Made by a program: the position numbers and the translations under genes. Below, in pieces: positions 262-48,466 of a stretch of 56,042 nucleotides of DNA. The notes under the pieces are model-generated. The model saw nothing but the letters and a program-made list of their open reading frames with translations, had not been told where the DNA came from and searched no databases. Positions within the stretch are counted from its first letter, which is position 1. Every line of letters begins with the position of its first letter. The stretch covers positions 1 to 56,042 of the forward strand of contig DATIIR010000058.1 in assembly GCA_035479435.1 (NCBI GenBank), in the 5' to 3' direction. The stretch is from Chlamydiales bacterium (GTDB taxonomy: Bacteria > Chlamydiota > Chlamydiia > Chlamydiales > SM23-39).

Positions 262-404
262 GGTGTTGTTGCATAAATCAAATTAACCACCGAGATCACC
301 GAGAGCACCGAGGGGATTTTAGGTCCTTTTTCCTCTTCTCGGTGATCTCGGTGTGCTCGGTGGTTATTAAACCGTCTCACAGCGAAGAATTATGCAACAA
401 GGCC
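262..404 (-). mobile_element. MITE-like hairpin element, copy 1 (inverted relative to copy 2)
   Basis: Termini are GGTGTTGTTGCATAA...TTATGCAACAAGGCC. Internal arms carry 3x CACCGAG facing 3x CTCGGTG. The reverse complement matches 34576-34719 with about 4 differences. No target-site duplication (TSD) is visible. Confidence 0.8.
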
Positions 405-1432: not shown

Positions 1433-3364
1433 ATGGCGAAGTCGCAGCAAGCCGATTGTCACCTATTGACAGCTCGGGTTAATAAGAAGAGGAAAGAGGT
1501 GATCGTTGTCGGAGGGGGATTGGCGGGACTTTCGTGCGCCATGAAGTTGGCCGAAAAGGGGTGCCATGTCAAGCTGATCTCGGTGACGAAGGTGAGAAGG
1601 TCCCATTCGGTGTGCGCGCAGGGAGGGATCAATATCGCGGTCAACTTGAAGGGAGAGGACGATTCCCCGATCATCCACGCGTACGACACGATCAAGGGGG
1701 GAGATTTTTTGGCCAATCAGCCTCCGATTCTGGAGATGTGTTTGGCGGGGCCAGGGATTTTGCGGATGATGGACCGGATCGGCTGCCCATTCAACCGGAC
1801 GCCGGAGGGGCATGTCGATTTTCGCCGGTTTGGTGGGACTCTTTACCACCGGACGGCGTTTTGCGGCGCGTCGACAGGGCAACAATTGCTCTATTCACTC
1901 GATGAACAGGTGAGAAGGTTTGAAGCAACGGGGTTGGTGGAGAAGTTTGAGAATCACGAGTTTTTGCGACTGATTCTGGATAGCGAAGGGAGAGCTCGCG
2001 GGATTGTCATGCACGATCTGTTCAATTTGAAATTGGAAGTGCTCAAGGCAGACGCAGTGGTGATCGCGACGGGTGGATTGGGCCTCATTTATAAGAAATC
2101 GACGAATTCCACCTTCTGCACGGGAGCGGCGAATGGCAGATTGTATATGCAGGGGATGAAGTATGCCAATGGAGAGTTCATCCAAATCCACCCGACGTGC
2201 ATCCCGGGCAATGACAAAATGAGGCTGATTTCCGAATCGGTGCGGGGCGAAGGGGGGCGCATATGGGTGCCTGGCAATTCGTCGAAGTCGATTCGATTCC
2301 CCGACGGGAAGATGAGGCCTTGCGGCAAGACGGGAGAGCCGTGGTATTTTCTCGAGGAGATGTACCCCGTTTTTGGCAACTTGGTGCCGCGCGATATCGG
2401 CTCTAGAGAGGTTTTGCGCGTGTGCGAATTGGGGCTCGGCGTCGATGGGAAACTGCAGGTCTACCTCGATATCACTCACCTGCCCGCTGAGAACCAACAT
2501 AAATTGGAGTCGGTTCTCGATATCTATCAGAAATTCACGGGCGATGATCCGCGCAAAAAACCGATGAAAATCTGCCCGGGGGTCCACTATACGATGGGTG
2601 GGGCGTGGGTCGATTGGCCGTCCGCCGATGATCCCGATCGATGGAGCCGTTTTAGGCAGATGACCAATCTAACGGGCTGTTTCAACATCGGCGAATCGGA
2701 CTACCAATACCACGGCGCGAATCGCCTCGGCGCCAATTCCCTCCTCTCGTGCATCTTCAGCGGCCTTGTGGCGGGCGTTGAGGTGCCGAGGTACATCGAT
2801 TCGCTTTCTACGAGCTATGCAGAGACTCCCGAGGAGGTCTATCGCGATGCGCTGGCGATCGAGCAGCAGATGCAGCGGAATCTACTGAGTTGTGATGGCC
2901 CTGAAAATGTGCACAAACTGCACGATGAACTCTCCGATTGGATGGTTCTCTACGCGAGTGTAAAGAGAGACAATGCCGATCTCGAAAGGGCGATGGAAAA
3001 GATCAAAGAGATCCGCCAGCGCTATGAAAATATTGGCCTTGGGGATCGGGGGACAGTGTTGAATCAAACGTACGTTTTCGCGCACCAATTTCGGGCGATG
3101 TTAGAGGTGGCTTTGGTGATCGTAAAGGGCGCACTGCTGCGCAACGAATTTAGAGGGGCGCATTTCAAACCCGAATTTCCCGAACGAAATGATGCAGATT
3201 GGTTGAAAACCACGATTGCGACTTACGCTCCAGAAGAGCCGGTGATGAGTTATGAACCAGTTGACACGCGCCATCTCGATCCGGTACAGAGAGCCTATGC
3301 GCAGGTCAAAACCGGTAAACCGACTTTGAAGAATATCCCCAAAAATATACAACTGCCTCTGTAA
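1433..3364 (+). CDS. sdhA: Succinate dehydrogenase flavoprotein subunit
   Basis: FAD-binding VIVVGGGLAGLS, plus HSVCAQGGI and HYTMGG motifs. 643 aa with a GAGGAGG RBS. Confidence 0.95.
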   Translation: MAKSQQADCHLLTARVNKKRKEVIVVGGGLAGLSCAMKLAEKGCHVKLISVTKVRRSHSVCAQGGINIAVNLKGEDDSPIIHAYDTIKGGDFLANQPPILEMCLAGPGILRMMDRIGCPFNRTPEGHVDFRRFGGTLYHRTAFCGASTGQQLLYSLDEQVRRFEATGLVEKFENHEFLRLILDSEGRARGIVMHDLFNLKLEVLKADAVVIATGGLGLIYKKSTNSTFCTGAANGRLYMQGMKYANGEFIQIHPTCIPGNDKMRLISESVRGEGGRIWVPGNSSKSIRFPDGKMRPCGKTGEPWYFLEEMYPVFGNLVPRDIGSREVLRVCELGLGVDGKLQVYLDITHLPAENQHKLESVLDIYQKFTGDDPRKKPMKICPGVHYTMGGAWVDWPSADDPDRWSRFRQMTNLTGCFNIGESDYQYHGANRLGANSLLSCIFSGLVAGVEVPRYIDSLSTSYAETPEEVYRDALAIEQQMQRNLLSCDGPENVHKLHDELSDWMVLYASVKRDNADLERAMEKIKEIRQRYENIGLGDRGTVLNQTYVFAHQFRAMLEVALVIVKGALLRNEFRGAHFKPEFPERNDADWLKTTIATYAPEEPVMSYEPVDTRHLDPVQRAYAQVKTGKPTLKNIPKNIQLPL

Positions 3365-4320: not shown

Positions 4321-4893
4321 TCAACGGAGTTTTATCAACTCTGTCGCCTGTCTGTGGGGCTTCGCAATCCAAGAATCTAGGTCGAATTCTTCCATGTAAA
4401 GCCGCTTTACAATGGTCTCTTTCAGCTTCTGAATCAATGTGTTAGGACTTAAACTGTGAACTTTTAGGCGGGTTAGAAAGTCGCTGTGAGAGCGATCTTT
4501 TCTGTATTGCGGCCTCTTTTCGGGAAGGCGAAGGTGGGCCATGTTTTCTTCGGAGTAATCCCACAAAAACGAGGTGTGGTGGAGCCACCGGTCTTTCTTG
4601 ATGTACTGCGCGTTGCCTCCACATTTTTTCTCCCCGATGCAATAGTCGTTTTCTCTGAGGTGAAACTGGGGAATTTTCCAGGCGTCTCTGTAGAGATCTG
4701 CAGACCAGCGGAGGATCGGCTCGGGGAAGGGGGCGACGTCAATGTGTTCTTTAGCCATGATGAAGGTGATGAAGAGGGTGTTTTCGTCGACGATGACGGT
4801 GCCGCCGCCGCTAAAGCGCTTGATGATGGGGATCTGATCCCGTTCGACCGTGGGGAGATTGAGCAGCGCTTCTGGCTGACCAGAAATACCCAT
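4321..4893 (-). CDS. Lipoate-protein ligase (LplA/LipM) family protein. Coordinates are the minimal ATG ORF; the true N-terminus probably extends to about 5016-5031.
   Basis: FSGGGTVIVDENTLFITFI and KKCGGNAQY motifs. The same frame upstream of the ATG reads KIHLIHLNGVPIFEQLQLEEALLR, a typical N-terminus for the family, with no ATG/GTG/TTG available. Confidence 0.8.
   Translation of the reverse strand: MGISGQPEALLNLPTVERDQIPIIKRFSGGGTVIVDENTLFITFIMAKEHIDVAPFPEPILRWSADLYRDAWKIPQFHLRENDYCIGEKKCGGNAQYIKKDRWLHHTSFLWDYSEENMAHLRLPEKRPQYRKDRSHSDFLTRLKVHSLSPNTLIQKLKETIVKRLYMEEFDLDSWIAKPHRQATELIKLR
4395..4411. repeat. Iterated palindrome copy b
   Basis: TGTAAAGCCGCTTTACA lies inside the lplA-like ORF and is translated as IVKRLYM. 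Confidence 0.9.
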
Positions 4894-17252: not shown

Positions 17253-17269
17253 TGTAAAGCGGCTTTACA
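17253..17269. repeat. Iterated palindrome copy c (intergenic)
   Basis: TGTAAAGCGGCTTTACA; symmetry extends over 17252-17270. Confidence 0.9.
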
Positions 17270-22582: not shown

Positions 22583-25284
22583 TTTTTGCCAACTGCGATA
22601 TGCACTTCAATCGGGACATTCAAGGTCATGACATGTTCCATTTTCTCCTTGACAATTGCCTCGAAAATAGCGATTTCGGAGTCGGGGATTTCAAAAATTA
22701 ATTCGTCGTGAATTTGCAGGATCATTTTTCCCTTTAAATTCCGTTCGCGCAAGACTCGGTCGATCTCGATCATGGCCATCTTGATCAGGTCGGCGGCGGT
22801 CCCCTGCAGCGGCGTGTTGATGGCCAGTCTCTCTGCCGCGGCGCGGATGCTCGGATTCTGGTTGTGGATCTCGGGGATGGGGCGCAATCTGCCGTTCAGG
22901 GTGGTGGTGGAGCCGCTCTTGCGCACGACGGCTTTACAATGCTCTAAGTAGCTAAGCACGCCCGGGTAGCGGGCAAAATAAGTCTTGATGAAGTCGGAGG
23001 CCTCGCGCATGGAGATCCCGAGCTGTTTAGAGAGGCCGAAGGCGCCTTGTCCATAGACAATGCCGAAGTTCACTGTTTTCGCTTGCGAGCGCATGGCCGG
23101 AGTGACTTCGGTTTCGGGGACGCCGAAGACGAGCGATGCGGTGTGAACGTGGATATCTCTGCCCGTCTTAAAGGCGCGGGTTAGCTCGGGGTCTTCGCTG
23201 AAATGGGCGAGGAGGCGCAGCTCGATTTGCGAGTAGTCGGCTCCGAGGAAACTGTGGCCCGCAGCGGGCTCGAAACAGGAGCGGATCTCCGAGTGGATCG
23301 GGATATTTTGCAGGTTGGGATCTTGGCACGAGAGCCTTCCCGTCGCGGCGACAGACTGATTGAACGTGCAGTGGATGCGCCCGGTAATGGGGTTGACGGC
23401 GTGGGGAAGGGCTTCGACGTAGGTGGAGCGGAGTTTTTCGAGCGTTCGGTATTCTAGAACGTGGCGCACAACTGGGTGTTCCTCTGCCAATTCTTCGAGG
23501 ACGTCGGCAGCAGTGGAGGTGGTTTTCGATTTGAGACCCAGTTTTTGGTAGAGCACTTCGCTCAGCTGCTTGGGCGAATTGAGATTGAACTCTTCGCCCA
23601 CCTCTTCAAAGATCGTGAATTTGGCCTTGGTGAGGTCGTGGACGAGTTTTTCTCCTTCGACTTTTAGCCTCTCTACGTCGAGATAAATGCCGGTTCGCTC
23701 CATTTCTGCCAGAATCGGCAGGAGGGGCAGCTCGATATCGTGGAGAATCGGGCCTAATTTCTTGGCGTGGAGCTCCTCTTGGAAAAGCTCTTTGAGCCTT
23801 GTCGTGTAGTCGATGTCTTCACAGCAGTATTCTTTTACTTTTTCAATCGGCACATCGCGCATCGAAATCTGGTTTTTCCCCTTGCCGATGAGGCTCTCGA
23901 TGGGGACCTTTACTTTTTTGAACTTTTCGAGAGCGAGATCGTCGAGATTGTGGCGGCGCGTTTGGGGATCGATGATATACGAGGCGAGAAGGGTGTCAAA
24001 GGCGATTTTTTTGACGGGGATGTTGAGGTTTTGCAGAATGTGGTAGTCGTATTTGAAGTTGTGCCCATAAAAACCACACGGAGCTGAGGCGAAAAAGTTT
24101 CGGAGGGCCTCGACGACTCTCTGTTTGCCGAGTTTGCCATTGAGCGGCACATACCAAGCTTCGCCCGGCTCCACGCAAAAGCTGATGCCGACCAGATGGG
24201 CGAGCATCGGGTTGATGTCGGTCGTCTCGGTGTCCACCCCCACCTCTTTTGCGCTCGCGAGTCGCTGCAAAAGTGTCCGTAAATCGGCCTCGTTATCGAC
24301 CAAATGATACTCGTGTTTATCCAAATGTAAAGCCGCTTTACATTTGCCAGGGGCCCCCAAAGACGCATCGTCTTTGGGGTTTTGTATTGCGGCTTTACAT
24401 TGCATTTTTACGGGAGAAGGGGCTGCTTTCGGTTCGCTTAACTCCCTCAAAAGGGAGTTGAATTTCATCTCTTGGAAGAAGTTGCCGAGCTTTTGTTTGT
24501 CGGACTCTTTGATGCGGTAAAATTCTACATCTTGGGGGATCTCGACGCGGGTGTGGAGTGTGGCGAGTTCGCGGCTCATCAGCGCCTCTTTCTGTTGCGT
24601 GCGGAGGATCTGCTGCTTCTTTTCCCCTTTGACCCGTTCGGGGTGGGCCAAGATGTTGTCGAGTGTGCCGAATTCCTGTAAGAGTGAGGCGGCTGTCTTG
24701 GGGCCGAAACCCTCCAGGCCGGGGATGTTGTCTGAGGCGTCGCCCATGATCGCGAGGAGGTCGAGCATCTGGTCGGGCCTCACGCCGAAGAGCTCTTTCA
24801 CTTTGGAGGCGTCGACGATGAGATTATCTTTGTGGAGCTGGAGCAGGAAAATCCGGTCGTTGACCAGCTGCATCAGGTCTTTGTCGCTCGAGCAGAGGAA
24901 GACTTTCGAGCCCTTTTTCTCAGCCCAGAGGGCCACCGATGCCATGGTGTCGTCCGCTTCAACTCCATCGACGCAGAGCGTGGAGATGCCGGCCATTTGG
25001 CAGTAGTTGTAGGCGAGATCGAATTGGGGAAAGAGGTCTTCAGGGGCTCCTTTGCGGTGCATTTTGTATTCGGCGTAGACAACTTGGCGCGACTTTTTGT
25101 TGTCGGGGCCGTCGAAAACGCAGACGAGGTGGTCAGCGGAGAAGTCGCGGATCAACTTCTGGACGGTGCGGATAAAGCCAAACAGGGCACTTGTCGACTG
25201 CCCCTTGTCGTTGAGCATGGGCCCAATAGCGTAATAGGAACGGAAAAGGTAATTGACGGCGTCTAAGATATAGATCTTATCCAC
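22567..25284 (-). CDS. polA: DNA polymerase I
   Basis: 5'-nuclease N-terminus, 3'-5' exo motif VGVDTETT, and polymerase motifs DYSQIELR and QIHDELIFE. Confidence 0.96.
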   Translation of the reverse strand: MDKIYILDAVNYLFRSYYAIGPMLNDKGQSTSALFGFIRTVQKLIRDFSADHLVCVFDGPDNKKSRQVVYAEYKMHRKGAPEDLFPQFDLAYNYCQMAGISTLCVDGVEADDTMASVALWAEKKGSKVFLCSSDKDLMQLVNDRIFLLQLHKDNLIVDASKVKELFGVRPDQMLDLLAIMGDASDNIPGLEGFGPKTAASLLQEFGTLDNILAHPERVKGEKKQQILRTQQKEALMSRELATLHTRVEIPQDVEFYRIKESDKQKLGNFFQEMKFNSLLRELSEPKAAPSPVKMQCKAAIQNPKDDASLGAPGKCKAALHLDKHEYHLVDNEADLRTLLQRLASAKEVGVDTETTDINPMLAHLVGISFCVEPGEAWYVPLNGKLGKQRVVEALRNFFASAPCGFYGHNFKYDYHILQNLNIPVKKIAFDTLLASYIIDPQTRRHNLDDLALEKFKKVKVPIESLIGKGKNQISMRDVPIEKVKEYCCEDIDYTTRLKELFQEELHAKKLGPILHDIELPLLPILAEMERTGIYLDVERLKVEGEKLVHDLTKAKFTIFEEVGEEFNLNSPKQLSEVLYQKLGLKSKTTSTAADVLEELAEEHPVVRHVLEYRTLEKLRSTYVEALPHAVNPITGRIHCTFNQSVAATGRLSCQDPNLQNIPIHSEIRSCFEPAAGHSFLGADYSQIELRLLAHFSEDPELTRAFKTGRDIHVHTASLVFGVPETEVTPAMRSQAKTVNFGIVYGQGAFGLSKQLGISMREASDFIKTYFARYPGVLSYLEHCKAVVRKSGSTTTLNGRLRPIPEIHNQNPSIRAAAERLAINTPLQGTAADLIKMAMIEIDRVLRERNLKGKMILQIHDELIFEIPDSEIAIFEAIVKEKMEHVMTLNVPIEVHIAVGKNWAEC
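24323..24402. repeat. Nested palindromic module inside the polA linker
   Basis: Contains AAATGTAAAGCCGCTTTACATTT (24323-24345), the hairpin CCCCAAAGACG-cat-CGTCTTTGGGG (24355-24379), and the degenerate copy TGTATTGCGGCTTTACA (24383-24399). Translated in frame as MQCKAAIQNPKDDASLGAPGKCKAALHL. Confidence 0.85.
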
Positions 25285-34023: not shown

Positions 34024-34111
34024 TATTTATCAGATAGGGCGTCGATGCCGGGGAGATGCCCGTATTCGAGAAGTTCGAGTGAGGCGCCGCCGCCTGTCGA
34101 GAGGTGGGCAA
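34024..34111 (-). pseudogene. Displaced duplicate of the pgk 3' end (last 29 codons plus stop)
   Basis: 87 of 88 nt are identical to 34788-34875. It is preceded by its own stop codon (TAA here, TAG in the intact gene). Confidence 0.85.
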
Positions 34112-34206: not shown

Positions 34207-34554
34207 ATGTCTAGTACAAGACTTCAGTTTCCAAGCGCAGATGTAATGACACAATTTTTATCCAATCATGGACTGTTGAATTGCGACTATTATCGAGAAA
34301 ACAACATTACACAAACCGTAGCGAGACTCTCTGCAGAACGATTTGCTGATACCAACAAGCCAGAACGAGGTATTGAAATGGGAATAATGTTAATCGTTAA
34401 CGATCTTAAGACAGGAAAGGACGGTTTTTCTGGAGCAGATCTCCCAAAGATCGAGTTGCCGGAGGCGATGTGGCCCCAGCTTGGTTTGGCTCTTCGAAAG
34501 GCTCTCGTTGAGTGCGCAGAAATTCCAGTAGCAGACAGCAAAAATAAGGTCTAA
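34207..34554 (+). CDS. Hypothetical protein (orphan, 115 aa) inside the pgk-duplication cassette
   Basis: Strong AGGAGG RBS 7 nt upstream. Visibly lower GC than the surroundings. No domain recognised. Confidence 0.55.
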   Translation: MSSTRLQFPSADVMTQFLSNHGLLNCDYYRENNITQTVARLSAERFADTNKPERGIEMGIMLIVNDLKTGKDGFSGADLPKIELPEAMWPQLGLALRKALVECAEIPVADSKNKV

Positions 34555-34575
34555 TGCAGATCTTTTCGGGCTCGC

Positions 34576-34719
34576 GGCCTTGTTGCATAATTCTTCGCTG
34601 TTAGACGGTTCAATAACCACCGAGCACACCGAGATCACCGAGAAGAGGAAAAAGGACCTAAATTTCCCCTCGGTGCTCTCGGTGATCTCGGTGGTTAATT
34701 TGATTTATGCAACAACACC
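34576..34719 (+). mobile_element. MITE-like hairpin element, copy 2, with an 8-bp target-site duplication
   Basis: Terminal inverted repeats (TIRs) GGCCTTGTTGCATAA / GGTGTTGTTGCATAA (13 of 15 match). Flanked by GGGCTCGC at 34568-34575 and again at 34720-34727. Internal arms carry 3x CACCGAG facing 3x CTCGGTG. Confidence 0.88.
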
Positions 34720-34786
34720 GGGCTCGCTGTTTTTTTTGAAGAGGGTGAGTCGTTTGGTTTTTCTCCAAAAGCACTTAGAGGTCTCC

Positions 34787-35956
34787 CTATTTATCAGATA
34801 GGGCGTCGATGCCGGGGAGATGCCCGTATTCGAGAAGTTCGAGTGAGGCGCCGCCGCCTGTGGAGAGGTGGGCAAATCGATCGCCCAGACCCATTTGCTG
34901 AATCGCTGCGACCGAGTCGCCGCCGCCGATGATGGTTTTGGCCTTGGCGTGGGCAAGCGCTTCGGCGATGCCGCGGGTTCCCGTGGCAAAGTGGGCCATT
35001 TCAAAGACTCCGACGGGTCCATTCCAAAAAACAGTGGCGGCTTTCGTTAATTCCTTAGACCACTGGGCAATGGTCTGAGGCCCAATGTCCATCCCTTGCC
35101 AGCCGGTGGGGATGCCCTGATGGATGGGAACGATCCGCCTGGTGGCATCATTGGAAAAGGCGTTGGCGATGACGAGATCGACGGGAAAATGGAGCTTGGT
35201 TTTGGGAAGATCGCGGATGGTATTGGGATCTTCGCAGAGCGAATCGCCGATGGGGATGCCCTGCGCTTTGAGAAATGTGTAGACCATGCCGCCGCCGATG
35301 AAGAGGGCGTCTACGCGTTTGAGCAGGCTTTGGATCACGCCGATTTTACTCGAGATCTTGGCTCCGCCGATGAGGGCAAAGAAGGGGCGCGCGGGATTGT
35401 GGAGGAGGGGACTGAGTTCTTGGAGCTCTTTCTCCATCAGAAAGCCCATGGCGGCTTTGTGGGGGAAGAATTTGGCGATGAGGGCTGTCGATGCATGGGC
35501 GCGGTGGGCGGTGCCGAAGGCGTCATTGACGTAGCAATCGCCCAGTTTCGCGAGCTGCGCGGTAAATGAGGGGTCTTTTTCGGGCGTCTCTTCTCCGGCG
35601 TGAAAGCGAAGGTTTTCCAATAGGAGCACTTGGCCGGGTTGCAGTTGGGTCGCCATTTTTTTTACTTCGGGACCGATGCAATCGGGCGCCATGGCGACTG
35701 GTTTTTTCAGCAGATCCGATAGCTTTTTAGCGCAGGGCGCAAGTGTCAACTGCGGGTCTTTGCCTTTAGGCCGGCCCAGATGGCTCATCAGAATGAGCGA
35801 GGCGCCCTGGTTGAGTACGTATTCAATGGAGGGCAAAGAAGCGACAATGCGCGAATCGTCGGTGATGACTCCGTTTTCGATGGGGACGTTGAAGTCGACG
35901 CGCATGAGAACGCGCTTTCCCTTAAGCGATAGATCTTTCAGGGTGAGTTTAACCAT
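34787..35956 (-). CDS. pgk: Phosphoglycerate kinase
   Basis: RVDFNVP, MSHLGRP and GGGDS motifs. 389 aa. Confidence 0.96.
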   Translation of the reverse strand: MVKLTLKDLSLKGKRVLMRVDFNVPIENGVITDDSRIVASLPSIEYVLNQGASLILMSHLGRPKGKDPQLTLAPCAKKLSDLLKKPVAMAPDCIGPEVKKMATQLQPGQVLLLENLRFHAGEETPEKDPSFTAQLAKLGDCYVNDAFGTAHRAHASTALIAKFFPHKAAMGFLMEKELQELSPLLHNPARPFFALIGGAKISSKIGVIQSLLKRVDALFIGGGMVYTFLKAQGIPIGDSLCEDPNTIRDLPKTKLHFPVDLVIANAFSNDATRRIVPIHQGIPTGWQGMDIGPQTIAQWSKELTKAATVFWNGPVGVFEMAHFATGTRGIAEALAHAKAKTIIGGGDSVAAIQQMGLGDRFAHLSTGGGASLELLEYGHLPGIDALSDK

Positions 35957-36010
35957 ATTTCGATGGTAGGTAAGGGAGGCGATTTAGTCAAGCGAGCCAG
36001 TTATGAGCCG

Positions 36011-36128
36011 GTTGCATAACCCTCAGATATCTTGGCCGGAAGGGTAAAATTAACCACCGAGCACACCGAGAGCACCGAGAAAGGGTAGGAAAATGCGCGT
36101 TTCGCGCCTCGGTGTCTCTCGGTGGTTG
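36011..36128 (+). mobile_element. MITE-like element, copy 3 (diverged and truncated)
   Basis: GTTGCATAA end, then 3x CACCGAG facing 2x CTCGGTG. There is no right TIR and no TSD. Confidence 0.6.
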
Positions 36129-36161
36129 AAAAAATTAGCGAAAATTGTGGGTCAGACTTAG

Positions 36162-38718: not shown

Positions 38719-39879
38719 ATGAGCAACGCGACTTTAGAAAAGGCCCCAAAGAAAGTACTCTCCTCTCTGGTTCGAGAGGCGAGAGAGACCCTTCATCTCG
38801 AAAATATACCCGTCAAAGGCTACGAAAGGGTCGTCAAGGTGACGGACAAGAAGGCTGGACTCACGGGGATCATCGCCGTCCATAGCACGGTGCTGGGGCC
38901 CTCGCTCGGGGGGATCCGGATTCGGCCCTACCCCACATTCGACGCCGCCTTGGAAGACGTGTTGCGCCTCGCCAAAGGGATGACCTACAAAATGGCCGTC
39001 GCCGAAACGGGTCTTGGCGGGGGAAAGAGCGTGATCATCGCCGACCCTAAAAAGGAAAAAACCCCCGAATTGCTCATGGCGATGGGCGCCGCGATCGAAA
39101 GACTCGGAGGGAGCTACATTTGCGCTGAAGATATGGGTTGCACCATGGATGATGTGAAGATCGTTCGCCGTGCGACGAAGTATGTCGTAGGGCTCTCCCA
39201 CGCTAAGAGCAGCGGCGATCCTGGACTCTTCACAGCCTGGGGCACTTTTCGCGGGATTCAATCCATTGTAAAGCGGCTTTACATGACCGATTCCCTAGAG
39301 GGACGAAGGGTTGCAGTCCAAGGAATTGGCAATGTGGGAACCCCTCTCATCGACCACCTTTTTTGGGCTGGTGCCGAATTGATTCTCTCCGATATCGACG
39401 CGGCTAAATTGGACTACTATGCGACCAGATACAACGCGAAAAAGGTCTCTCCCGATCAGATTTTGAAAGTGGAGTGCGATGTGCTCTCTCCCTGCGCGGC
39501 GGGCGCCATCTTCAACGACCAGACGATTCCCCAATTGCGCTGCAGAGGGATCTCGGGATGTGCCAACAATCAGCTGCTCCGCGACGACCACGCGCGAGCG
39601 CTGAAAGACAGAGGCATCCTCTATGCGCCCGATTTCGTCGTCAGTGGCGGCGGAGTCATCAACGTCGCCGAGGAGCTCGAGGATGCGGGCTATAACCCCA
39701 CTACACCTCGCTACAAAGTACACCACATTTACGACACGCTTCAGGCCATCTACGAGATCGCCGACAAGAACAACGAATCGACCCATGAAGCCGCCGTCGC
39801 CTTGGCCGATTATCGACTCAAGTACGCGATTGGCAAGAGAGTTGTTCCCCCCACATTCCACCACAGCGCAGAATTCTAG
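38719..39879 (+). CDS. Glu/Leu/Phe/Val dehydrogenase family protein (leucine dehydrogenase-like)
   Basis: GPSLGGIRI, KMAVAETGLGGGK and VAVQGIGNVG motifs. Start chosen at MSNATLEK. Confidence 0.88.
   Translation: MSNATLEKAPKKVLSSLVREARETLHLENIPVKGYERVVKVTDKKAGLTGIIAVHSTVLGPSLGGIRIRPYPTFDAALEDVLRLAKGMTYKMAVAETGLGGGKSVIIADPKKEKTPELLMAMGAAIERLGGSYICAEDMGCTMDDVKIVRRATKYVVGLSHAKSSGDPGLFTAWGTFRGIQSIVKRLYMTDSLEGRRVAVQGIGNVGTPLIDHLFWAGAELILSDIDAAKLDYYATRYNAKKVSPDQILKVECDVLSPCAAGAIFNDQTIPQLRCRGISGCANNQLLRDDHARALKDRGILYAPDFVVSGGGVINVAEELEDAGYNPTTPRYKVHHIYDTLQAIYEIADKNNESTHEAAVALADYRLKYAIGKRVVPPTFHHSAEF
39267..39283. repeat. Iterated palindrome copy e
   Basis: TGTAAAGCGGCTTTACA inside the dehydrogenase ORF, translated as IVKRLYM. 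Confidence 0.9.
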
Positions 39880-41622: not shown

Positions 41623-41630
41623 CGATTCAA

Positions 41631-41988
41631 CAAGTCTATCTACGCAGGGCAGAGAACAGGATAACGACTCGCTCTCGCGAGTCTGAAGATATCCACTCGC
41701 TGCGCGAGTGGGCAAGATACGTCCGCCTGATGGCGGACTGGCAGGATAAGAGAAAGGGGGAGCGCCGGGCCCAGCCTCCGGCTGGTATTGCGCCTGCGGC
41801 GCAATTGCGAATTGCATTCGCGCCCGGCGCTCCCCCGCTTCGCGTCTTCTTGGGGCGCGGGGCCTCCCCGCATCTTGTAAGCCTGCTATCAAGCAGGCGT
41901 ATCGTGCCCACTCGCAACGCGAGTGGACATCCTTAGGCTCGAGAGAGCGAGCCGTCATCCTGTTCCCCGCCTTGCATAGATAGACTTG
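41631..41988. repeat. 358-bp long inverted repeat composed of serial short hairpins
   Basis: Arms of about 140 bp (CAAGTCTATCTACGCAGG... versus ...CCTTGCATAGATAGACTTG) are roughly three-quarters identical as reverse complements. At least 10 local hairpins are present, for example 41693-41711 and 41908-41926. Confidence 0.85.
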
Positions 41989-41996
41989 TGGGTAAC

Positions 41997-47542: not shown

Positions 47543-48466
47543 TTATACGACATTGCGAGAAAATTGGACAGTTTTTCCACGCACGCTCAATTGATTCGGG
47601 AGAAGACCGTCTTGGATATGTGTAAAATAGAGACGCTTTTGTGGCATTTGCAGTGCAACCCAGCTCATCGTTTTGCGCGCATTGATCTCGACGATCGGAT
47701 GCACCCGCTTTTTTCCTTCCCACAGATAGATGAAACTGTCGATTCCCACGTAGCCTGAGTAGCCGAGCTTCGCAATCTTCTCAATCAACGGCTTTGCCAC
47801 TGCAAGATGTTCTTCCAGCGCCCATGTTTCGACACTGGCTTCAAACGTTCCTCTGTACGTGCCGTTGGGTTCATTTTCAAAAACAGTGACGCCTAAAAGG
47901 GCGCCATCCTTCCACTGCGTGCTGAAGTCTTGGAGCCTCTCCACCCACGGTTCTCCTATGAGAGGGCCAATGTAAAGCCGCTTTACATTGGGATTTAGGA
48001 CGTGGCCTCTACCTGCGGTTCCGAAGGGCGTTTTCAACACCTTTGGCCCCGGTGTCTTGGCAATCCATTGGGTGATTTCTTGGCCGGTTTCGAGCAGAGC
48101 GGCGCCGGGTAAGGGGGGCGATTCTGTGAAGGAGAAGATCTTTGAGTTCACTTTCTGGACCACATTCCATGGCGGGATAGTGTAGGGGATGTGATGGCTT
48201 TTGGCCCAGCGGGCGATCGCCTCGGAGGGGCCCCAGTGTTCGATGTGGGTGGTGCCTGGTGGGGGTTCAAGGCAGAGGCGAGGGTCTGGATCTCTGGGTA
48301 GGTCGGAGACCAAAATGGAGTCGTTGGGCCCGGCGTAGAGGAGAGGGAGAAATTGGAGCTGCATCACGACCGGATGGGAGCGGATCCACTCGGCCAACGG
48401 TTTTTTGTCTCTGGTTTCGAGCTCTTTTTCAAAAAAAGTATTGCAAATGTGGAGTGGCGACGACAT
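47543..48466 (-). CDS. ATP-grasp-like hypothetical protein
   Basis: The C-terminal half carries [13 protein letters not shown]...[10 protein letters not shown]...IVEINAR, an ATP-grasp-like Mg/ATP motif pattern. Confidence 0.65.
47967..47991. repeat. Iterated palindrome copy f (perfect 25-bp form)
   Basis: CCAATGTAAAGC-C-GCTTTACATTGG inside the ATP-grasp ORF, translated as PNVKRLYIG. Confidence 0.92.

Follow-up and report, generated by a model that had tools for sequence, protein, structure and literature searches.

A 144-bp hairpin element in a Chlamydiales genome is very probably a MITE of an IS903-group parent with composite ends

Introduction

The insertion sequence (IS) IS903 makes 9-bp duplications of its target. 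In the E. coli plasmid record NZ_CP110979.1 it carries the terminal repeat GGCTTTGTTGAATAAATC at both ends. IS903-type elements are reported to transpose replicatively and to give rise to adjacent deletions and cointegrates; in that study's data, those insertions that went with a large deletion were without a duplication (PMC11708052).

Bacterial MITEs, among them Correia/NEMIS, RUP and QMITE as well as the IS6-family MITEBth2 and MITEHarch3, are small, intergenic and non-coding, have terminal inverted repeats and a target duplication, form a stable hairpin on transcription and have an inferred origin in an IS minus its transposase (PMC10969869, PMC6807381). The IS6/IS26 family, for which two MITEs are listed, makes 8-bp duplications; in its terminal consensus, GGTTCTGTTGCAAA, G1, G2, G7 and G10 are conserved and positions 3-4 are variable (PMC6807381, PMC7986276).

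Here we analyse a 56,042-nt stretch of a Chlamydiales genome (the window), in which an earlier note, made from the letters alone, had recognised a MITE-like element. This element, termed B, shares the above traits of bacterial MITEs but differs from them in its parent IS group and in its long, composite inverted ends with a triple heptad each. The kind is well known; the heptad-bearing family is, as far as we found, undescribed. Literature searches on CACCGAG hairpin repeats returned only unrelated papers, and those on GxxExxY with transposase and on Chlamydiae with MITE yielded no description of the element. The window itself holds nothing beyond ordinary MITE biology, its odd feature being the triple CACCGAG repeat at each end.

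Results

Anatomy of element B

Element B begins with GGCCTTGTTGCATAA at 34576 and ends with TTATGCAACAACACC at 34719. Its features, in order along the window, are as follows.

34567..34575, no strand: left target-site duplication as the 9-mer CGGGCTCGC, read from the sequence
34568-34575, no strand: left target-site duplication copy as the 8-mer GGGCTCGC, read from the sequence
34576..34593, + strand: left terminal inverted repeat, GGCCTTGTTGCATAATTC, 15/18 to the IS903 inverted repeat
34615..34642, + strand: left sub-terminal heptad array, AACCACCGAG CA CACCGAG AT CACCGAG, from sequence and pattern scan
34643..34668, no strand: 26-nt loop, read from the fold and from comparison with the full-length element L117 (below) as the remnant junction of the missing parent-IS interior
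34669..34696, - strand: right sub-terminal heptad array, CTCGGTG CT CTCGGTG AT CTCGGTG GTT as read on the + strand
34702..34719, - strand: right terminal inverted repeat, reverse complement GGTGTTGTTGCATAAATC, 15/18 to IS903
34720..34727, no strand: right duplication copy, GGGCTCGC; its 9-mer form, 34719-34727, takes in the last C of the element

Direct reading agreed with the earlier note that the terminal inverted repeats match at 13 of 15 positions (15/18 when extended to 18 nt), and that each arm bears three CACCGAG heptads at 9-nt spacing, starting at 34618, 34627 and 34636 on the + strand and at 34669, 34678 and 34687 on the - strand. A window scan for a two-heptad pattern returned 10 matches against 0.04 expected. 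The 160-nt stretch folds at -76.6 kcal/mol on the + strand (z = -8.6) and at -80.5 kcal/mol on the - strand (z = -10.2), values matched by none of the shuffled sequences on either strand.

At gathering threshold, Rfam gave a single tRNA in the window and nothing for the element; in E-value mode it gave only generic hairpin (miRNA-model) matches far below threshold. No intrinsic terminator around B rose above shuffled background in a scan that is blind to a hairpin this long, and the 144-bp element had no match in the plasmid collection. The sole ORF across B, of 73 aa at 34580-34801 (+), runs through the hairpin (...TTEHTEITEK...SVLSVISVV...); it is a MITE artefact, which gene finders would probably list as a hypothetical protein.

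Full-length elements with the same ends

By tblastn, the window encodes no IS903-type transposase; the earlier note had said that it has no transposase gene at all, and had proposed a search for an IS with matching ends and 8-bp duplications. Such ISs do exist, with duplications of 9 bp among the relatives: full-length elements of 1.2-1.6 kb with the same ends, and with heptad triplets at both, occur on metagenome contigs from samples other than this genome (L117, L119, L121, L151 and L153-158). L117 was located by a metagenome scan for the terminal repeat together with heptads. L119 and L121 are decayed full-length copies. The copies in L151 and L153-158 were fetched via protein identity alone and are thus a sample unbiased as to DNA pattern; all have heptads at both ends. 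Five sister elements (L145, L147, L148, L150 and L152; 62-71% identical) share the terminal repeat and have no heptads.

The intact element in L117 (973-2564, 1592 bp) shares the terminal repeat and bears three heptads at each end: on the left GGCCTTGTTGCATAAATC, a spacer and ACCACCGAG CA CACCGAG AG CACCGAG, on the right the mirror image. It encodes two genes.

1032-1445, - strand: GxxExxY/PDDEXK_3 gene
1535-2485, + strand: transposase gene, 316 aa

The L117 transposase scores 291.5 bits on the NCBIfam model NF033579 'IS5 family transposase' (cut-off 140), which the IS903 transposase of the E. coli plasmid matches too; the two proteins compare at 47%/38% identical (E = 6.6e-59). Against plasmids, the best matches reach 43-44% identity across 97-98% of its length, some of them under the annotation 'IS5-like element IS903B family transposase'. 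This exact protein (P0001) is on record with the Pfam families PF13737 and PF01609, both of which also score on the L119 copy. At E <= 1e-20 there are at least 7070 homologues, the named ones including 'IS5 family transposase [Chlamydiae bacterium]' and one from Candidatus Babeliaceae.

The ends point the same way. The 18-nt terminal repeat of the family, GGYNTTGTTGCATAAATC, starts with GGC and is nearly identical to the GGCTTTGTTGAATAAATC of IS903/IS903B of enterobacteria; the two window ends match the latter at 15/18 each and an L118 end at 17/18. With IS903/IS903B the family thus has in common the terminal repeat and a partner transposase that matches NF033579 and the Pfam families DDE_Tnp_1_5 and DDE_Tnp_1. 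That transposase is, however, only ~44% identical, IS903 lacks both the CACCGAG heptads and a GxxExxY passenger gene, and the window element is a 144-bp non-coding derivative rather than an IS.

Its small size, terminal repeats, a flanking duplication at B itself, several copies and full-length ISs with the same ends bear out the earlier reading of B as a MITE. We consider it very probable that B and its two further copies in the window, A and C, are non-autonomous miniature transposons of an IS5-family, IS903-group parent with composite ends. Each end of such a parent would be an unusually long composite of ~55-60 nt, in which the 18-nt IS903-like repeat is followed by a short spacer rich in A/T and by three CACCGAG heptads; of each end, ~55-75 nt would be kept in the window element. 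With the interior lost (the transposase gene, with or without the GxxExxY nuclease gene), the two ends would have come to lie head to head, and it is because they face each other that the element forms one long hairpin. The interior hairpin of the earlier note is not cargo: it corresponds to the sub-terminal part of the parent's long inverted ends. An IS903-type DDE transposase, supplied in trans by a full-length copy that lies, or once lay, elsewhere in the genome, would bind the terminal repeats, cut at the GG/CC tips and insert the element by a staggered 9-bp target cut, the repair of which would create the flanking duplication. Such mobilisation in trans is what we infer for the window's genome, the full-length elements coming from other metagenomes.

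For annotation, this reading turns three intergenic hairpins and a spurious 73-aa ORF into one MITE family, whose parent would be of the IS903 type and belong to environmental chlamydiae and their neighbours.

The GxxExxY gene (TIGR04256 / PF13366 PDDEXK_3), of a nuclease family, was found in L117 (1032-1445), L121 (874-1356) and L153-L158. It recurs as a passenger of the heptad-bearing IS, where it is oriented divergently from the transposase gene, and is absent in L151. In L118 (147-866), a 720-bp element consists of terminal repeats and the GxxExxY gene only. A general association between heptads and GxxExxY was considered and rejected, as it occurs only in the IS903-like family and not in the other 100-odd loci. 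The passenger gene provides a lead to the biology of a large uncharacterised nuclease family and, together with the cross-phylum heptad module described below, is a part of this system worth following.

Three side observations concern these loci. Right beside the decayed heptad-bearing IS of L121 lies an IS110-family (RNA-guided) transposase gene (1620-2702). L152 contains 47-bp elements (784-830 and 3025-3071), each made of two IS903-like terminal repeats back to back, which adjoin a full-length IS of the same family. Finally, an Acidobacteriota MAG (L014, 2924-3703) has five tandem copies of a 124-bp relative at a 164-bp period, bearing the same two kinds of terminal repeat.

The heptad array across phyla

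One genome per species was scanned with the pattern AACCACCGAGNNCACCGAGNNCACCGAG, a 28-nt array in which exact heptads are required. The exact array occurred in at least 111 genome stretches, and the matches listed include Chloroflexota, Planctomycetota, Chlamydiota, Acidobacteriota, Rifleibacteriota, Verrucomicrobiota, KSB1, Ignavibacteriaceae and Gammaproteobacteria; with so many phyla, the heptad hairpin is not specific to the window's lineage. Since the search pattern itself demanded exact heptads, their apparent conservation is partly a matter of ascertainment. A few of the matches listed, in high-GC actinobacteria and phages, are coding repeats of the Thr-Thr-Glu type, and those on viral contigs were mostly coding Thr-Glu repeats and uninformative. 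Related copies of the element itself came from Chlamydiales and Acidobacteriota MAGs and from metagenomes; the window-type terminal repeat (TTGCATAA...TTATGCAA) accompanied the array, among the matches listed, only at some Chlamydiales MAG loci and in one Acidobacteriota MAG. No kilobase-scale element bracketed by heptad arms was found in the genome loci.

A counterpart outside the IS903-like family is a set of repeats in Chloroflexi, seen in MAGs only, at 10 or more sites per genome. They share with B and its relatives the layout of a terminal repeat, an A/T spacer and three heptads at both ends, and with the relatives duplications of 9 bp, which are exact in 8 of 20 elements and 8/9 in 4 more. 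They differ in the terminal repeat, which reads CAGGGCAATCGCATCAAA...TTTGATGCGATTGCCCTG around an unchanged layout, and in an interior of 150-300 nt of several types. With such duplications they look like MITEs moved by a 9-bp-duplicating transposase, comparable to the IS903-type relatives. No transposase was found in the fetched loci.

Other arrays are found outside such a frame. Hairpin-only copies, for instance in L027 and L086, have no recognisable IS903-like terminal repeat. Among L057, L099, L042, L103 (a Simkaniaceae MAG) and L092 (a Chlamydiota MAG), heptad arrays also occur outward-facing around a conserved 87-nt core, and as 82-nt tandem units around a GxxExxY gene. Hairpin-only copies and outward-facing arrays suggest that the array may also exist independently of such ends; neither the outward arrays nor the tandem units are accounted for by a simple MITE model.

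Within the IS903-like family, two elements have a departure from the consensus array at both of their ends. In L153 (239-1837) the heptad spacing is 8/10 instead of 9/9, mirrored at both ends, and in L151 (1225-2527) the outermost heptad, beside each terminal repeat, is CGCCGAG at both ends. Judged from these two sequences, the mirrored changes suggest that ends separated by 1.3-1.6 kb evolve in concert.

How much the array means beyond the transposon can be read in two ways. It may be, and we put this forward tentatively, that the triple CACCGAG array has a function, as a sub-terminal module in a cross-phylum lineage of IS903-related elements and their MITEs, whose two ends are kept complementary. 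If so, the ends would either pair, as RNA or as single-stranded DNA, or show identical arrays to a protein, and either would amount to a control or synapsis device undescribed for the IS5 family. As to what the heptads do, our guess is extra binding sites or an anti-read-through device. A stronger departure would make the CACCGAG hairpin the real unit, spread or selected separately as a protein-binding array, structured RNA or terminator, with IS903-type ends as one carrier among others. The very stable fold, the exact array in at least 111 stretches of many phyla and in different shells, the hairpin-only copies and outward-facing arrays, and the mirrored changes in L153 and L151 would all suit such a unit. 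Yet wherever boundaries are readable, the array is sub-terminal within a terminal inverted repeat and the element has a 9-bp duplication, and the Chloroflexi counts fit one broad IS903-related lineage; moreover, Rfam has no match, and some occurrences are merely coding repeats. An independent heptad unit is, on this balance, unlikely, and a MITE derived from an IS903-group parent is the reading we retain.

The exact array links MITE-like repeats of many phyla and hence offers a handle for their annotation. The shared architecture of terminal repeat, spacer, three heptads and 9-bp duplication is, in addition, a testable case for the role of long composite IS ends.

Target-site duplications

For B, a perfect 8-bp duplication had been claimed. 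An exact 8-mer does abut both ends, which by arithmetic (4^-8) has a chance of ~1.5e-5 per element, but its length departs from the family rule of 9 bp. Counting the last C of the right end as target makes the repeat an exact 9-mer, CGGGCTCGC (34567-34575 / 34719-34727); on the sequence as it stands, the 9-bp rule would hold for B only with a shared terminal C or after the loss of one base. The junction with a single repeat copy expected at an empty B site (34567-34727) is CTTTTCGGGCTCGCTGTTTT. Duplications among the relatives were as follows.

L118, MITE at 430-596: ATAGGAAGG, 9/9; a GxxExxY gene is interrupted by this MITE, and its residues 65-68 occur twice
L145: TCCATTCGT, 9/9
L147 and L148: GTGTGGAGA and ATTAGCCCG, 9/9 each; two insertions of an identical IS, both from one sample
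L152: GTTTCAAGT, 9/9
L118, outer 720-bp element: 8/9

No flanking duplication was found at L117, L123, L151 and L153-158; some of these contigs, being short-read assemblies of a multi-copy IS, may be chimeric.

Duplication length and tips also bear on a different parentage, in which B would be a MITE of the IS6/IS26 family with GG-tipped 14-bp terminal repeats and 8-bp duplications. An IS6/IS26 parent was an early lead, suggested by the terminal repeat and by a duplication of 8 bp: the window ends have G1, G2, G7 and G10, disagree with each other at precisely positions 3-4, and are flanked, at B, by an exact 8-mer. The lead was overturned by the IS5/IS903-type partners. The ends match at ~10-11/14, against 15/18 for IS903; the transposase encoded by all full-length elements that have these ends is of the IS5 family (NF033579) and not of IS6; and the relatives make 9-bp duplications, with the repeat at B readable as 9 bp. 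We regard an IS6/IS26 origin as very improbable. Hardly credible, finally, is a REP/RAYT-type palindrome or other domesticated intergenic hairpin with a coincidental flanking repeat: a highly stable intergenic hairpin in several copies would suit it, but B has no GTAG head, the associated genes are DDE rather than tyrosine (HUH) transposases, the terminal repeats are of DDE type with flanking duplications here and in relatives and with full-length IS partners, and the 8-mer would arise by chance at ~1.5e-5.

Other copies in the window and an empty site

A profile of the element ends matched only A, B and C (3 copies in 56 kb), all three of which are intergenic.

262..404, - strand: copy A, inverted relative to B and 140/144 identical by alignment, with heptad arrays at 288-312 and 338-362
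~36005..36140, no strand: copy C, degenerate, with left end GAGCCGGTTGCATAA (nhmmer E = 4.6e-12 for the left end)

Copy A measures 143 bp and B 144 bp. The inverted copy had been put at about four differences from B, and the alignment gave just that, with 3 substitutions and 1 indel (140/144 columns identical). Recent mobility, which had been concluded from this likeness, is made plausible by the 97% identity but finds no echo in the surroundings of A, where the flanks match at 2/9, or 5/9 after a one-base shift, and there is no target-site duplication. The arrival of A was, on this ground, not a simple insertion.

Copy C, between an RNase_T-type exonuclease gene and the pgk promoter, has three heptads at 36055-36079 and two at 36108-36123, a barely recognisable right end and flanks too decayed for a duplication to be read. 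The comparison of empty and filled sites suggested by the earlier note was made for this copy. By its pgk neighbours, the window's organism is an environmental Chlamydiota; its exact pgk protein has no entry on record. L161 is syntenic with the window (TsaE - EngB - RNase_T exonuclease - PGK), its pgk being 80% identical to the window's. The exonuclease/pgk spacer is 76 nt long in L161 and 205 nt long in the window; the 36 nt nearest the promoter are conserved, and the length difference is about the size of copy C. L161, which lacks copy C, thus represents an empty orthologous site for it, filled in the window.

Several further repeats of the window were recorded. A 17-nt palindrome, TGTAAAGCSGCTTTACA, has six exact occurrences (243-259, 4395-4411, 17253-17269, 24326-24342, 39267-39283 and 47971-47987) vs 0 expected, the first of which abuts copy A; the palindrome is perhaps a terminator particular to the species, or else a REP-like motif. 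An 88-nt direct repeat (34024-34111 and 34788-34875; 99% identical) duplicates the pgk 3' end 764 bp downstream of the real gene end, and between its two copies lie B and a 115-aa ORF (34207-34554) with no Pfam or NCBIfam match; the repeat has the look of a scar left at the pgk end by an insertion or a rearrangement. Two inverted arms of 118 nt (41630-41747 / 41872-41989), 80% complementary, 124 nt apart and with the tips ACAAGTCTATCTA...TAGATAGACTTGT, probably represent a MITE-like element of another family.
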